DNA of 64,000 bases from positions 70,234-134,233 of the forward strand of contig CALXLF010000004.1 in assembly GCA_944389125.1 (NCBI GenBank), given 5' to 3'. This document shows, in pieces, positions 10,165 to 14,498 of the stretch. The stretch's first letter is position 1, and every line of letters begins with the position of its first letter. A program made the translations under genes and the position numbers. Source of the stretch: an uncultured Clostridia bacterium (GTDB lineage Bacteria > Bacillota > Clostridia > TANB77 > CAG-508). Below the pieces are notes generated by a model, which saw only the letters and a list, made by a program, of their open reading frames with translations, was not told the DNA's origin and did not search any database.

Positions 10165-11190
10165 CTAGAAACAGATTGACAAGTCATCCTGAAAAATACT
10201 TCTTTTATGATTATTACGGTTAACGATCATTTCTATCTGAGCAGTTTTTCCTTTAGAAAGCATTTCCAAAAACTTATACTGTTCAGGCTCATAAAGTTCT
10301 CCAAAGTATCTTAGGCCATCACTAGCTACTCCCACATTGACATATTTATCTTTAGGATAGCGAGATACTTTAAAGTCTACACCTTCCTTATAATCAGAAA
10401 GCTTTTCAGGGTTAATCCAATTATAAATGTAGTATGCCGGAAATTCTCCATCATCGAGTTTTTCAAAAGCAATTCCATCAGCATCTTCTGTGATAATATA
10501 ACCATCTCCACAGCTATAAACCACAAATTCATCTTCGTATTCAAGACAAGCTAAAATTGTAAAACAGTAATTTTCGAAGATAAATGCTGTATCACTGCAG
10601 AGATATAACATGTTTTCCAGAACTGCATTTACAATTCCTGTAAATGCCTCTTCAGGAATTTCTCCATTCTCGATATGTGCTGCAAGATCATTCATGTCTT
10701 TTCCTACCACATATTTTTTTGTTCTTGCAACATTTTTTGTTTTAACACACTCCATGAATTTTACAACTTCTCGAGAAAAAAGCTGACCAAAAAGTCTTGT
10801 CCCCACTTCAGAATGCTTTCCTGAACCGCATCCGTCAGTAATAACCTTTAAGTTCATAAAACTAAATGCAAAATCCTGATTATTAACATTGCATCTAGTG
10901 TGCTCTACTCCAACTTTACTTACTTTTACAGTTTTCCTAGGAGCAAGCTTTTTCTCATCAGTATTGTCAGTTTCTTTAGATGATGTCTCAGCTTTTTCCG
11001 GAACAGACTGTTTATCAGTTTCCGATGCTGTAGATGCATTCTGAACAGGTTTTGATGATGTTTCTCCTTCTTTGATTTTAGAAGAATTATCATCATTTTT
11101 TGGAGTTTTATCTCCAGATTCAACTGGGATTTCTACTCCTTTTCCTTTCCGAACTCCTGCTCCTAATAAACCAGTATTAAATATATTCAT
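10165..11190 (-). CDS. PP2C-family Ser/Thr phosphatase with a low-complexity S/T/E/K-rich N-terminus (YegK/PphC-like)
   Basis: ITDGCGSGKHSEVG and later GVASDGL motifs typical of bacterial PP2C. A start at MNIFNTG has a gagaggag RBS. Confidence 0.55.
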   Translation of the reverse strand: MNIFNTGLLGAGVRKGKGVEIPVESGDKTPKNDDNSSKIKEGETSSKPVQNASTASETDKQSVPEKAETSSKETDNTDEKKLAPRKTVKVSKVGVEHTRCNVNNQDFAFSFMNLKVITDGCGSGKHSEVGTRLFGQLFSREVVKFMECVKTKNVARTKKYVVGKDMNDLAAHIENGEIPEEAFTGIVNAVLENMLYLCSDTAFIFENYCFTILACLEYEDEFVVYSCGDGYIITEDADGIAFEKLDDGEFPAYYIYNWINPEKLSDYKEGVDFKVSRYPKDKYVNVGVASDGLRYFGELYEPEQYKFLEMLSKGKTAQIEMIVNRNNHKRSIFQDDLSICF

Positions 11191-11213
11191 GACTTTTCTC
11201 CTCTCAATCAAGA

Positions 11214-11244
11214 AGGAGGTCGCAGTGCGGCCTCCTTCTGAATC
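11214..11244. other. GC-rich 13-bp stem-loop (gaaggaggtcgca g tgcggcctccttc) in the vWA-PP2C intercistronic gap; no U-tract
   Basis: Near-perfect inverted repeat, strongly GC-rich relative to the surrounding sequence. Confidence 0.5.
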
Positions 11245-11275
11245 AAAGTTAATAGTTACTTACAGGTTCTAATTA

Positions 11276-11992
11276 TTATACATCAAAGAAGCCAGTGTCT
11301 CCGCCACCAAGACCTGCGCTCGCTCTCTTGGAAGCGGAAATTGCACTCTTGGAAACCATGTTCAAAGCCTCCCGTAGACCATGTTCATCTTTGGAATAGT
11401 CTTTTACATTTTCAGGTTTTACCCCAAGGCTCTGTGCAATTCCTTTGGCATCTTCACCAAAAGCGATGAAAGCCACAGCAACTTCGCGTTTGCGAAGATC
11501 TTCGATTGCTCTCCTCGCATCAGCATCGGAAGCTTTGGAGCAGTTATTCCATCCATCAGACAGAATGACAAGGCAACCACGCGGTGTACCACCGTTGTCA
11601 CGAATCTGATCCATGTAATCAACAATCAGTTTCCGTCCAGCGATGATTGAATCATTAAGAGCAGTCATTCCGGATGTTGTGTAACTACAGTCAAAATCTT
11701 CGGGTTTCACAAATCCGCCGATATCTACGCTGCTTCCGAAAGTAATCTTTGCTGTCAGCATCTCGTCTGCCTGTTTGGAACCTAAAATAGCACTCTGGAA
11801 ATTCTTGAGGCAGTCACTCATAACACCGTTATACTCATATTCATCCATAGAATCGCTTTTGTCAATGTCCACGACACACAGATACGGTGTCGCTGTATCC
11901 AGCTCTTCTACGTCCACATTCTGATTCAAGGCATCCTCATAACCGTCGATTTCAATAGTATCTAAGTTGTAATCATCATTTTTCATTGTCAT
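11276..11992 (-). CDS. von Willebrand factor A (vWA) domain protein with a MIDAS motif (TerY/YegL-like)
   Basis: DxSxS MIDAS (VVDIDKSDSM), then downstream T and D motifs (LSDGWNN). Confidence 0.7.
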   Translation of the reverse strand: MTMKNDDYNLDTIEIDGYEDALNQNVDVEELDTATPYLCVVDIDKSDSMDEYEYNGVMSDCLKNFQSAILGSKQADEMLTAKITFGSSVDIGGFVKPEDFDCSYTTSGMTALNDSIIAGRKLIVDYMDQIRDNGGTPRGCLVILSDGWNNCSKASDADARRAIEDLRKREVAVAFIAFGEDAKGIAQSLGVKPENVKDYSKDEHGLREALNMVSKSAISASKRASAGLGGGDTGFFDV

Positions 11993-11999
11993 TTCCTCC

Positions 12000-12938
12000 T
12001 TAAACTAACTGAATATCTGTTGACTTTGCAAACTTAATACCATAAGTACGTTTGAAATTATCAAACGCATCTCTGGTAAGCTGCTCACACCCAGTGATCG
12101 GAGACGTGCAGTCTTCCAAAATTGTAATTTTGGTAGTAATCTCCGGACGAGTTGCATACTCTTCCGCAATCTGTTTTACACTTTCCATCAAGCAGTGACT
12201 AGCCGCTTCGCCGACAACGTAAATCTCATCGTACTGCTGGAAAGCATTTAAAACACGCGTATTCTTAAGATTTCTCTTAGAATACTCCGGACGAATGATG
12301 CCATACATCTCGGAATAGAAATCTGTTCCTTTGTGAATGATTCGCGGAATAGTCTTCCTTGCTGCCGCATGGAAATACACCATCTTTGCGAATTCATTCT
12401 CCAGGTCAAATCCTTCCGTACCATGAATGCAATGGTACGTCCAGATACAGAGTCTTTTCTTTGCCTGTTTCTCCAGTTCCTGAAGATAAGTCAAAGAATC
12501 CACCGGATTACCGTACACCGGTCTCCAAATACCATTGCTTACGTCATCGTACGTAATTTCCGTATACGGAGCAGGATTTTCACCATCTGCATTTTCCCAC
12601 CACGACGGGAAAAAAATGTGGAACGGATAGTGTGTGTCCATAGAGCACATGATATCCGTAATCCCTTCCATGTTGTTATAGATGAACTTAGTCATTCTTT
12701 CAACATCTCCAAGGGATCCCGGAACTCCAAGTGCTCCGCCTTCCATAAAATCCTTTTGCACATCAATGCAAAGAAGGAGTCTTCTTACAGAATCTCTACC
12801 ATTCGGTGTCAGCTTTTCCTGAAGTGCAAGATCAATGAGTCCAGGCTGTCCATTGAAATCCACCTTTCCGTGTTCTCCGATTTGTGATAAGTTCACAATC
12901 TGATCATAACTTGTCTTTAATGACATAACAAACCCCAC
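12000..12938 (-). CDS. pncA: Nicotinamidase/pyrazinamidase (isochorismatase-fold cysteine hydrolase) with N-terminal and internal extensions (312 aa)
   Basis: LLLCIDVQKDFMEGGALGVPGS matches the PncA IDVQNDF..GGSL motif, and VVGEAASHCLMESV carries the catalytic Cys. It is followed 7 nt later by the vWA gene, so the two are probably co-operonic. Confidence 0.7.
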   Translation of the reverse strand: MGFVMSLKTSYDQIVNLSQIGEHGKVDFNGQPGLIDLALQEKLTPNGRDSVRRLLLCIDVQKDFMEGGALGVPGSLGDVERMTKFIYNNMEGITDIMCSMDTHYPFHIFFPSWWENADGENPAPYTEITYDDVSNGIWRPVYGNPVDSLTYLQELEKQAKKRLCIWTYHCIHGTEGFDLENEFAKMVYFHAAARKTIPRIIHKGTDFYSEMYGIIRPEYSKRNLKNTRVLNAFQQYDEIYVVGEAASHCLMESVKQIAEEYATRPEITTKITILEDCTSPITGCEQLTRDAFDNFKRTYGIKFAKSTDIQLV

Positions 12939-12946
12939 TTTCTTAT

Positions 12947-13075
12947 TAACTTTTCAATTTACAGTTACTCATGTCAATTGACATAAATATTTTCTCATTC
13001 CTCATAAAGTCCTCCTTAAATGCTATGAGTATAATATTTTGAGTAAATATCTAATTATTGACATGTCTTATATTT
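12947..13075 (-). promoter_or_regulatory. Leader of the pncA operon: TTTACA-17-TAAAAT promoter, AAGGAGGA RBS and a 19-codon uORF (MRNEKIFMSIDMSNCKLKS, 12947..13006) containing the perfect palindrome TGTCAATTGACA (12973..12984); about 80% identical to the leader at 14206..14348
   Basis: Direct comparison of the two upstream regions; the uORF stop lies 8-20 nt from the pncA start. Confidence 0.55.
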
Positions 13076-13142
13076 TAACATGATTTTAATAATTTGTAAA
13101 CACTTTATGTATATTTTAGAAATAAAATCTAAGAAAACAAGG

Positions 13143-13180
13143 AAAATGAGTATAGAGTTTTAGCAACTCTATACTCATCT
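13143..13180 (-). terminator. Rho-independent terminator downstream of 13228..14172 (gagtatagagtt..aactctatactc plus a T-run on the minus strand)
   Basis: 12-bp inverted repeat plus U-tract. Confidence 0.65.
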
Positions 13181-13227
13181 TCTATAAAACTATATTAAAT
13201 GTGAATCTATACAATCCCGCAAATACA

Positions 13228-14172
13228 TTAGACAGAATAAACTTTATCTAACTGATTGTAGACATACATTTTAAATGCCTCTTTCCAATTGCGGTAATCT
13301 TCCGGCTCTTTTGGATACTCGCCACCTATATTGGTATTAAGTGCTTCATAAAAAGCTTTTACTTTTGTAATCATATCTGCATTGAATACAAAATCCTTTA
13401 ACTCTTCCTCAGAAGCATCCACTTTCCAATAAAAGCCATCAGGTGCATATACATCAACATCATACATCAGTGCTGGCTGACCATCTTTACCAAAAAACTT
13501 ATCGCTGTATCCAAGGCACTTTGCCTGGTACTTGTTTCCTGTAAGAAGTAGCACTTCTTTTTCTTCTGGTTTTAAATAGTCTTTGCCAAAACGAACCATG
13601 TCAAGAACAACTGCACCTTCATGGAAATGGAACTTGCAGATTGCAAGCTTATTTTTGTTTCCATATCCAAGAGCTACAATCTCTTCCACTGTAGCCTTTG
13701 TTGAACTCTGAAGAGCATCGATATAATCAAACTTTCCCTCAGGAGTCTCGGATATTTCTGTCTGCCTACATGCTCTTACAGTATCATACTTAATCTCTTC
13801 ACCATCATTGGCAAATACAAACAGTAGCACTATCATGTCAGCGATTTTCTGAAGTCCTATCTCAGATATCAGCCCTGGTGTCTGCTTTTTACCTTCACTG
13901 AATCTCATAAACTCAGCATTATCATTTCCCATCAAAGTGTTAATTGTTTCATATGCCTTTCCAGCCTTTACAGTTTCTTCATCAAAATCTTTGTCTGTAA
14001 TGAATTTTCCGTCCGGATTTCCGACATAATATCTTTGAGCAGATATTATATCATCAGAAACTGTTCTTGCAAAAAAAGCAATGTTAGCTCTGCTTATTGA
14101 TTTTTGCAAAGCTTCTTTACCTGCATTAGTGTGTAAAAGATCAATAAGTACTTCTTTGTTAATTTTGCTCAT
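13228..14172 (-). CDS. Hypothetical 314-aa soluble protein, transcribed from a leader nearly identical to that of pncA (probably the same regulon)
   Basis: Intact ORF with an RBS; no recognisable motif; shares the leader, uORF and palindrome with pncA. Confidence 0.5.
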   Translation of the reverse strand: MSKINKEVLIDLLHTNAGKEALQKSISRANIAFFARTVSDDIISAQRYYVGNPDGKFITDKDFDEETVKAGKAYETINTLMGNDNAEFMRFSEGKKQTPGLISEIGLQKIADMIVLLFVFANDGEEIKYDTVRACRQTEISETPEGKFDYIDALQSSTKATVEEIVALGYGNKNKLAICKFHFHEGAVVLDMVRFGKDYLKPEEKEVLLLTGNKYQAKCLGYSDKFFGKDGQPALMYDVDVYAPDGFYWKVDASEEELKDFVFNADMITKVKAFYEALNTNIGGEYPKEPEDYRNWKEAFKMYVYNQLDKVYSV

Positions 14173-14205
14173 ACAAAGCCTCCTAAAATGAATATAGTTT
14201 ACGTG

Positions 14206-14348
14206 TTACTTTGCTGTCAATTGACTTAAAATATTTACCTCAATTCTCATATGGTCCTCCTTTATTGCCACGAGATAATATTTTGCTTGCAAACATTTAT
14301 AAGTTCAAATAACGGTAATTATTATATCATCTTTTGTATTATTGTCAA
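14206..14348 (-). promoter_or_regulatory. Leader of 13228..14172: TTGACA-16-TATAAT promoter (14321..14348), AAGGAGGA RBS and a 14-codon uORF (MRIEVNILSQLTAK, 14206..14250) containing the palindrome GTCAATTGAC (14216..14225)
   Basis: Near-consensus sigma-A boxes; about 75 nt are conserved with the pncA leader. Confidence 0.55.
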
Positions 14349-14498
14349 TTAAATCAAATTTATACAAGAATAATATCTTGGTATTTGTTAACATAATTTC
14401 GTTGACTGATTGCTAGTTTTGTGGTAAAATTAACATGTTTCTATGCTCCCGCAAGAGCATGTTTTAACATTTTTATTATTTAAAGGAGGGTCATAATT

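Follow-up and report, generated by a model that had tools for sequence, protein, structure and literature searches.

A structured leader RNA shared by ADP-ribosyltransferase and nicotinamidase genes of uncultured Clostridia: a riboswitch candidate linked to NAD turnover

Results

The locus and its two leaders

The window analysed in this work, a 64-kb stretch of contig CALXLF010000004.1 from an uncultured Clostridia bacterium, carries on its minus strand a nicotinamidase gene (pncA) and a gene coding for a 314-aa protein (orf314), both preceded by copies of the same leader. A first-pass annotation of this DNA had considered the leaders as a shared DNA operator combined with a leader peptide. 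The present analysis points to a structured cis-regulatory leader RNA, a riboswitch candidate apparently undescribed as an RNA motif, located upstream of genes for the turnover of nicotinamide adenine dinucleotide (NAD). The two genes in the window are the following:

13228..14172, minus strand: orf314, coding for a 314-aa protein with a predicted ADP-ribosyltransferase fold of the R-S-E type (AlphaFold2 predicted local distance difference test, pLDDT, 91.9 with 21 homologues; Foldseek; conserved residues).
12000..12926, minus strand: pncA, coding for a 308-aa predicted divergent nicotinamidase, a long PncA-like amidase (AlphaFold2 pLDDT 90.4; Foldseek; invariant residues).

Between CAAAATATTAT and GTCAATTGACA the leaders share 57 of 72 alignment columns (79%), in agreement with the identity of about 80% over roughly 75 nt previously annotated, and their direct-repeat blocks lie 1243-1245 nt apart. 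The sequence AAGGAGGACNNNATGAG has exactly two mismatch-free occurrences in the window, where about 0.4 are expected with up to two mismatches. The palindrome TGTCAATTGACA, described as present in both leaders, is perfect at 12972-12983 only, and the copy at 14215-14226 matches 11 of the 12 positions. Because the 12-mer is not enriched in the window at two mismatches (5 found, 5.35 expected), significance is reached by the leader as a whole (see its covariance-model E-values below) and not by the palindrome taken by itself. No third copy was found in the 64-kb window by a covariance-model scan with the speed filters off; a search for further copies had been recommended in the first-pass annotation.

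The conserved element is an RNA of about 90 nt forming a three-way junction, with a closing stem (P1), a long hairpin with a 1-nt bulge (P2) and a short hairpin (P3). P3 is a near-invariant GUC-AAUU-GAC hairpin, and the loop of P2 usually carries AAGGAGG, a sequence like that of Shine-Dalgarno (SD) sites. Its parts in the window, together with the upstream open reading frames (uORFs), are the following:

14204..14298, minus strand: leader RNA copy 1, three-way junction in the 5' untranslated region (UTR) of the ADP-ribosyltransferase gene (covariance model 82.7 bits, E 8e-14; minimum free energy folding of the single sequence gives P1, P2 and P3).
14289..14293, minus strand: 5' strand of P1 in copy 1, UUUGC, pairing with 14210-14214 (all five P1 pairs change on both sides across the family).
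14272..14284, minus strand: 5' strand of P2 in copy 1, AAAAUAUUAUCUC, pairing with 14228-14241 (double changes in 8 of 13 P2 pairs).
14256..14262, minus strand: SD-like AAGGAGG in the terminal loop of P2, copy 1.
14206..14250, minus strand: clade-specific uORF MRIEVNILSQLTAK of 14 codons in copy 1, whose AUGAG offers CUC(G/A)U a proximal alternative for pairing (ATG in the window's clade only, peptide unconserved).
14228..14241, minus strand: 3' strand of P2 in copy 1, GAGGUAAAUAUUUU, with a 1-nt bulge (single-sequence folding, RNAalifold, pair counts).
14216..14226, minus strand: P3 hairpin of copy 1, A-GUC-AAUU-GAC, corresponding to the palindrome (GUC/GAC pairs in 24-25 of 25 sequences; outer pair covarying as A-U, U-A or C-G).
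14210..14214, minus strand: 3' strand of P1 in copy 1, GCAAA (pair counts on both alignments).
12961..13054, minus strand: leader RNA copy 2, 5' UTR of the nicotinamidase gene (covariance model 68.8 bits, E 6e-11).
13046-13041 and 12970-12965, minus strand: P1 of copy 2, UUACUC pairing with GAGUAA (both strands differ from copy 1, pairing kept).
13040-13027 and 12998-12985, minus strand: 5' strand of P2 in copy 2 and the strand with which it pairs.
13017-13011 and 12984-12971, minus strand: AAGGAGG and P3 of copy 2.
13005-12946, minus strand: uORF MRNEKIFMSIDMSNCKLKS of copy 2.

Conservation and covariation of the leader RNA

A scan of species-representative genomes for the transferase family yielded 18 loci, all from uncultured Clostridia or metagenome-assembled Clostridium genomes; related loci compared with the window are labelled with L-numbers (L001 and so on). 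A covariance model built on a hand-drawn three-helix structure found 27 copies of the leader in about 240 kb of related loci, all in sense orientation and each between a promoter and a gene start, and none outside such intervals in the approximately 1.4 Mb searched in total. The family consists of about 29 copies in about 20 Clostridia metagenome genomes belonging to one narrow gut Clostridia group, and the conservation in related genomes on which the first-pass annotation had made its proposal depend was therefore found. The leader persists even where the identity of the downstream proteins falls to 45-50%.

Variants of P1 and P2 can be read directly in the raw sequences. The UUUGC...GCAAA that flanks the junction becomes UUACUC...GAGUAA in the pncA copy of the window, and P1 was found as UUUGC/GCAAA, UUACUC/GAGUAA, UUGCUC/GGGCAA, UUGUAU/AUACAA, UUGCAU/AUGCAA and UUAC/GUAA. 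Patterned change was also seen among the relatives, with AUUAUCUC...GAGGUAAU replaced by AUUGUCUC...GAGGCAAU or GUUGUCUU...AAGACAAC. In the hand-curated alignment, which contains 25 sequences and was fitted to the structural hypothesis, 94.8% of the cells were paired and 14 of 22 pairs had double changes, whereas shifted controls reached 41-56% and none of 500 shuffles attained the observed value. The model-based alignment gave 87.8% of cells paired (shifted controls 34-53%) and double changes in 10 of 17 pairs. RNAalifold recovered P1, P2 and P3 from the hand-curated alignment at -10.8 kcal/mol, and single-sequence folding produced the three-way junction in at least 16 of 28 copies. At one P2 position U.G is the commonest pair, which indicates that the sense RNA strand is the folded molecule. 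The conserved secondary structure is supported by covariation, although RNAalifold fails on alignments that were not fitted to it, and this structure is highly likely to be real.

In the relatives the palindrome is usually AGUCAAUUGACU, and its outer T/A is unconserved in most of them (mostly AGUC...GACU, with A...U or C...G). The nicotinamidase copy of L002 carries GUCAAUUGGC, which includes a G.U pair, and the loop of P3 varies in length (AAU, AAAU and a 5-7-nt loop in the GUCACUUAUUGAC of the Nudix copies; the loop of L011 has 3 nt). The variation in loop length and the G.U pair, together with compensatory changes in the flanking P1 and P2, argue that the palindrome acts as an RNA hairpin within a three-stem RNA and not as a DNA site of fixed spacing, contrary to the operator first proposed.

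Genes associated with the leader

Three types of genes are preceded by the leader, encoding ADP-ribosyltransferases of R-S-E fold (about 17 copies), long nicotinamidases (8 copies) and Nudix hydrolases. Second copies before the nicotinamidase gene were found in L001, L002, L004, L005, L008, L111 and L178. The leader also precedes a second transferase paralogue and, in L180/L181, a gene for a 191-aa Nudix hydrolase, and it is present before a homologue of this Nudix protein with 87% identity in a different genomic context (L193-L197). The Nudix association was seen in two species. Some leader-bearing ADP-ribosyltransferase genes stand alone, with differing neighbours. Within one genome, the two copies are more alike than either is to copies of other clades. 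Every copy lies in the sense-strand 5' UTR of functionally related genes for NAD turnover, and the shared cis element with a small regulon tied to NAD/niacin metabolism that the first-pass annotation had suggested is thus upheld.

Locus L180 (3033-5218) contains tandem transferase paralogues; the first one (295 aa) has a degenerate leader lacking P3 and the 3' strand of P1, and the second one (405 aa) has a C-terminal extension of about 100 aa.

Pattern scans with AGTCAATTGACNAGCAA were of little use, with 2 real copies (L111 and L134) among the 120 metagenome matches listed, of at least 120. None of the 39 matches in a viral scan with the same pattern was real, and there is therefore no evidence of phage origin. 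The window also contains a T-box leader (110 bits; 37478-37697, minus strand) and two tRNA genes (29272-29342 and 29470-29540, plus strand), which fit a bacterial chromosome of Firmicutes type rather than a phage.

No relevant Rfam family was matched in the window, with either gathering or E-value scans (E up to 10), or in 11 related loci, so the scan for known riboswitches that had been recommended was negative. In the literature searched in full text, no paper connected a riboswitch candidate with genes for nicotinamidases or ADP-ribosyltransferases, and the element itself was not found described.

Transcription units

The signals that delimit the two transcripts in the window are the following:

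14321..14348, minus strand: sigma-A-type promoter of the orf314 transcript, TTGACA-16-TATAAT, with TG before the -10 (12/12 consensus match).
13142..13182, minus strand: intrinsic terminator of the ADP-ribosyltransferase transcript (T run after an 18-bp stem).
13072..13100, minus strand: promoter of the nicotinamidase transcript, TTTACA-17-TAAAAT, with TG.

A sigma-A promoter precedes each leader, as previously annotated, and the strong terminator at 13182-13142 separates the two units. No terminator was found inside either leader of the window. In every related locus the promoter is at the same position, and each copy of the leader is located 20-30 nt downstream of it; the leader RNA begins about 15-25 nt past the predicted transcription start and ends 6-77 nt before the ribosome-binding site of the gene. 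A half-site of the palindrome had been said to overlap each promoter. The one at the orf314 promoter is just its -35 hexamer TTGACA, an ordinary consensus, but the pncA one, CATGTCAAT (13065-13057), is located at about the predicted transcription start and is kept in other pncA-type leaders. The palindrome itself lies about 90 nt downstream of the predicted start.

Alternative pairing and expression platform

A 5' box with complementarity to P3 is present near the 5' end of both transcripts:

14303..14313, minus strand: 5' box GUUAUUUGAAC close to the predicted 5' end, which repeats the P3 palindrome in degenerate form and is a candidate for alternative pairing with P3 (-7.7 kcal/mol by RNAduplex, z -2.6).
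13057..13065, minus strand: 5' box CAUGUCAAU, roughly where transcription is predicted to start; it is the complement of the 3' half of P3 and its flank, AUUGACAUG (12979-12971) (RNAduplex -8.1 kcal/mol, z -2.9).

The complementarity exceeds that of shuffled controls over 25 leaders (mean z -1.75), with 15 of them below -1.65, and the 5' box GUUAUUUGACA of the relatives reaches -10.6 to -11.2 kcal/mol with P3 (RNAduplex). Nicotinamidase-type transcripts appear to start with (C)AUGUCAAU, the complement of the 3' half of P3, and a 5' box of the CAUGUCAAU type is kept in 7 of the 8 pncA-type leaders. Transferase-type leaders carry GUUAUUUGRCA, a degenerate copy of the whole palindrome, in the clade of the window, and UUGAU in the other clade. 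Judged by its complementarity, the pairing of the 5' box with P3 would fit an alternative fold that excludes P3 and P1.

A second alternative concerns P2. The proximal helix CUCAU/AUGAG, which holds the ATG of the uORF, covaries between the two copies of the window (CUCGUGG/CCAUAUGAG versus CUCAUAG/CUUUAUGAG). It was rejected as the conserved P2 because 70% of its cells were paired, versus about 90% for the distal partner, and in the Nudix copy of L193 the proximal partner is lost and the distal one is kept. With both helices considered, the CUC strand has a choice of two GAG partners in many copies.

Pairing of the 3' strands of P3 and P1 with the start region was discarded as a general output; it is attractive in both window copies and has a mean z of about 0 over 28 leaders. 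Other complementarities were observed around the transferase start. The P1 5' strand UUUGC also complements codons 2-3 of the transferase gene (AGC AAA; window 14170-14289, minus strand), and GCAAAG of the P1 3' strand complements CUUUGU between the SD and the AUG. Both pairs are used in the minimum free energy fold of the full leader; of 17 relatives, only about 7 have GCAAA at that position. Directly upstream of the SD, many transferase leaders (L005 4975-4984, L009, L011, L017 and L180) and the pncA copy of L004 carry a second palindrome centred on AAUU, GUUAAUUAAC. A kissing interaction with it was considered and rejected; the sequence also occurs in L009, whose leader lacks the motif, and it is probably lineage-specific context.

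SD-like loop and upstream reading frames

Of the 29 copies, 26 have the SD-like sequence in the P2 loop, either as AAGGAGG itself or slightly altered; the three copies without it (the pncA-type copy of L005, L111 and L190) still fit the model. A start codon at the right distance follows in 14 copies, of which 11 have ATG, all from the clade of the window, and 12 of the 29 have the SD-like sequence with no start codon. In this clade the strong SD, the 6-nt spacer and the ATG occur in 11 of 12 copies; L004 has ACG.

The annotated SD-led uORFs are present as described, at 14250-14206 and 13005-12946. They had been reported to end 8 to 33 nt before the main start; the upper value is correct for the former, which stops 33 nt before the ATG at 14172, but the lower value assumes a GTG start at 12938 for the nicotinamidase, whereas homologues support ATG 12926, from which the latter uORF is 19 nt distant. 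In the family, peptides of ATG-started uORFs have 7-20 residues and diverge past residue 7, and the distance from the uORF stop to the main start ranges from 12 to 56 nt. The two window copies differ in the frame in which the palindrome is translated. Neither regulatory codon runs in the uORFs nor a terminator were found. With an ATG in 11 of 29 copies, variable stops and unconserved peptides, the leader-peptide or attenuation function previously suggested does not hold for the family.

Encoded proteins and neighbouring genes

The top Foldseek matches of the 314-aa protein in the PDB all belong to the R-S-E ADP-ribosyltransferases, namely Vip2, Vis, ExoS, CDTa, C3 and iota toxin (E 5e-5 to 1e-3), and no Pfam or PDB match was found at the sequence level. 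R133, S156-x-T158 and E204-x-E206 are invariant or nearly so among homologues. With the fold and motifs of R-S-E ADP-ribosyltransferases in its predicted model, the protein would consume NAD+ and release nicotinamide. A signal peptide is not evident by eye, and the family comprises about 98 clusters in gut metagenomes, nearly all unnamed. In a PADLOC search the protein weakly matched RTas1808 (E 1e-7), an accessory model of defence reverse transcriptases; nothing was found for the nicotinamidase, the von Willebrand A protein, the kinase or the Nudix protein. The assignment to a defence system was rejected, with this weak match and a marginal one for the PP2C phosphatase (E 0.008) as the only hits.

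All top Foldseek matches of the 308-aa protein were nicotinamidases (2wta, 9e-13; yeast Pnc1, 5e-11), although its sequence scores below Pfam and NCBIfam cut-offs. Residues D55, K199 and C245 (Asp-Lys-Cys triad) and D97 and H99 (metal site) are invariant. According to the predicted model, the protein is a divergent nicotinamidase of isochorismatase-like fold with triad and metal site, and the pncA identity given by the first-pass annotation is supported.

The genes pncB and nadE are divergently transcribed, and a von Willebrand A protein, a PP2C phosphatase and a kinase-like protein are encoded downstream. The arrangement pncB-nadE, transferase, nicotinamidase and von Willebrand A-PP2C-kinase recurs in relatives. 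The last module always follows a nicotinamidase-like gene beside pncB-nadE (window 8377-11992, minus strand; L002, L004, L005, L008, L012, L178, L187 and L199). In the more distant lineage of L199/L200 (2037-4498), in which the leader motif is absent, Prs-like (Pribosyl_synth) and NAMPT-like genes precede the nicotinamidase/von Willebrand A/PP2C/kinase module, a pair reminiscent of the NAD-reconstitution pair of phages.

The divergent pncB leader (window 14443-14460, plus strand) has a small 5' hairpin, AUGCUC-CCGCAA-GAGCAU, followed by a U-rich stretch, and both sides of its stem are changed in L178 and L187. Most of the related loci aligned have kept, just upstream of the pncB -35 hexamer, the sequence TTGTTAACATAAT (window 14385-14397, plus strand), which contains the palindrome TGTTAACA and is a possible DNA operator for pncB-nadE.

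Discussion

Proposed function of the leader

The leader very probably acts in cis as a regulator. More specifically, it may be a riboswitch-type RNA that co-regulates genes for NAD+ consumption and clearance by acting on translation or mRNA stability, a proposal with about an even chance of being correct. After the start of transcription, it would jointly control the transferase, which uses NAD+, and the nicotinamidase and Nudix hydrolase, which would clear the breakdown products. Because the transferase would free nicotinamide, the nicotinamidase would remove it and the Nudix hydrolase could remove ADP-ribose or NAD(H), the gene set suggests an NAD-derived signal, and nicotinamide, NAD+ or nicotinamide mononucleotide, or ADP-ribose would be the sensed ligand. 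The chance that the leader senses a metabolite is somewhat below even; that its partner is a protein or the 30S subunit is a tentative possibility. The switch would operate between the junction fold and an alternative fold in which the 5' box is paired to P3 and the CUC strand of P2 takes its second GAG partner. Since no terminator and no conserved masking of the ribosome-binding site were found, the output would probably be exerted on the efficiency of translation or the stability of the mRNA, depending on how accessible the 5' end and the SD-like loop are.

A bolder version of the riboswitch proposal, rather unlikely at present, is a new, third class of NAD-linked riboswitches that senses a product or substrate of ADP-ribosylation (nicotinamide, ADP-ribose or NAD+) and switches on the transferase and the clearance enzymes, with an unconventional output based on accessibility of the 5' end and of the SD decoy.

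Several observations weigh against the riboswitch proposal. No expression platform was recognised: a terminator and conserved ribosome-binding-site masking are lacking, and the 3' strands of P3 and P1 pair strongly with the translation start region in a few copies only (z -2.8 in the window pncA copy). The complementarity of the 5' box is the sole observation that a two-site DNA operator explains equally well, and a protein or the 30S subunit could likewise be the binding partner of the SD-like loop and of a P3 that is near-invariant and self-complementary. The leader is missing from some transferase and nicotinamidase homologues (L007, L009, L013, L016, L182 and L199/L200). Regarding the structure, P1 and P2 are short, A/U-rich and weak, several rows of the plain MAFFT and the model-based alignments have P1 out of register, and from these two alignments RNAalifold recovered P3 only. 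The best pair counts are inflated by their derivation from alignments fitted to the structure, folding z-scores of the two window copies are only -0.8 to -2.1, and in a small family from a narrow group part of the covariation may stem from few evolutionary events.

Other explanations

The structured RNA could instead be the operator of a protein, such as a CsrA-like GGA-binding repressor acting at the AAGGA loop and the real ribosome-binding site, the transferase or another protein of the cluster in autoregulation, or a dimeric protein bound to P3. This explanation is unlikely, but it accounts for the conservation of the P3 sequence itself (GUC/GAC in 24-25 of 25), for the GGA in the hairpin loop and the second GGA in the SD of the gene, and for the missing expression platform; the greater likeness of copies from the same genome is also expected from co-evolution with one trans factor. 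However, no candidate gene for an RNA-binding protein is linked, the neighbours being the von Willebrand A, PP2C and kinase genes, the AAGGAGG loop is missing in three otherwise fitting copies, and the motif also precedes stand-alone transferase genes with differing neighbours.

A constitutive 5' stabiliser or translation enhancer, in which a structured 5' end and a STAB-SD bind the 30S subunit and block 5'-to-3' decay with no sensing, is improbable. It would agree with a perfect SD-like sequence far from the real start, with no start codon after it in 12 of 29 copies, with the pairable 5' end and with the lack of terminator and conserved ribosome-binding-site masking. Nevertheless, a generic element would neither be confined to three functionally linked families of genes nor require a conserved three-way junction whose P3 is invariant. 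The divergent pncB gene has a simple 5' hairpin of another kind, and three copies are without the SD-like loop.

In the clade of the window, ribosomes translating the 7-20-codon uORF could unwind the 3' strand of P2, P3 and the 3' strand of P1 and so set the expression of the main gene. The strong SD with 6-nt spacer and ATG in 11 of 12 clade copies, a reading frame that crosses the 3' half of the structure, and an SD+AUGAG block mimicking the real start region of the transferase gene (AGGAGG...AUGAGC) speak for a working uORF. Such a role is nonetheless very unlikely, as the ATG is accounted for by the CUCAU/AUGAG pairing, stop positions, peptides and palindrome frames differ as described above, L004 has ACG, the other clade keeps the RNA without a uORF, and neither regulatory codon runs nor a terminator are present.

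The DNA operator initially proposed, in which a NiaR-/NrtR-type or other dimeric repressor would bind the palindrome and a second half-site at the promoter, complemented by a leader peptide, is barely plausible. The self-complementary 10-12-mer with a related sequence at or near each predicted transcription start, the NAD-related genes, and the change of both 5' box and P3 to CGUCA in L012, compatible with two sites for one protein, are in its favour, but it leaves the covariation of P1 and P2 unexplained, half-site spacing shifts by -1 and +3 (GUCAAUGAC and GUCACUUAUUGAC), one copy is asymmetric but G.U-compatible, and most of the family has no uORF. Finally, there is the slightest of chances that the ADP-ribosyltransferase has the leader RNA as its substrate or partner, perhaps in NAD-capped form, as the co-regulated Nudix gene could suggest.

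If nicotinamide, ADP-ribose or NAD+ is what the leader senses, a first RNA sensor connected with ADP-ribosylation would be at hand. It would allow a direct approach to the function of the intracellular ADP-ribosyltransferase, so far uncharacterised, and of the conserved cluster of von Willebrand A, PP2C and kinase genes that accompanies it in abundant uncultured gut Clostridia. The absence of a terminator and of ribosome-binding-site masking could reveal an unusual output mechanism. Even with a protein ligand, the compact regulon gives physiological context to three poorly annotated gene families.

Comparison with known systems

The type I operator of NiaR (YrxA) is a 22-bp imperfect inverted repeat with a TGT-N4-ACA core that overlaps promoters (PMC2330245). 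The window palindrome resembles it in its occurrence in Firmicutes, its link to niacin and pncA, its TGT...ACA and its symmetry, but the TGT-CAATTG-ACA has N6 instead of N4 spacing, its outer bases are unconserved, it lies at about +90 with no promoter overlap, and its conservation is of RNA type, all of which speaks against the NiaR-type site first suggested.

The NAD+-II riboswitch (pnuC motif) is composed of P1-P1a and a pseudoknot that includes the ribosome-binding site and the start codon, is found on pnuC, and forms a small family of 43 unique sequences (PMC7749635). The present leader is likewise a cis-acting RNA of low-GC Firmicutes, with an NAD-salvage-related gene, a small family and no evident terminator, and the nicotinamide moiety recognised by NAD+-II is one plausible part of its ligand. 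It differs in being a three-way junction 6-77 nt from the ribosome-binding site, in its genes and in the lack of an Rfam match. The NAD+-I riboswitch (nadA motif) consists of two tandem bulged stem-loops with a ACANCCCC bulge, upstream of nadA in Acidobacteria (PMC7297122, PMC6859854). Being a leader RNA tied to NAD metabolism is common to both, but no CCCC is present in either window leader and Rfam gave no match.

Regarding the leader's possible protein or ribosome partners, its GGA in a hairpin loop, the second GGA in the SD of the gene and the lack of a terminator are reminiscent of CsrA-controlled leaders. In these, as in the hag leader of B. subtilis, GGA in a hairpin loop and in the SD mediates translational control without a terminator; CsrA sites are not known to include a junction with P1 and P3. 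STAB-SD sequences and 5' stem-loops are established mRNA stabilisers in Gram-positive bacteria, the STAB-SD stabiliser having reportedly been described by Agaisse and Lereclus in 1996; the term is also used in PMC5737220 and PMC7509114. The leader shares with them a 5' UTR SD-like sequence that does not start the main gene (26 of 29 copies, 12 of them without a start codon) and a pairable 5' end, but such stabilisers are simple elements of individual genes, whereas the leader is a conserved three-stem RNA of a functional gene set, with some copies devoid of the SD-like loop.

To our knowledge, riboswitches for NAD+ have been described in no more than two classes. These govern its supply, through synthesis (nadA) or uptake (pnuC), unlike the leader RNA described here, which is located on the side of NAD consumption and clean-up, upstream of transferase, nicotinamidase and Nudix hydrolase genes.

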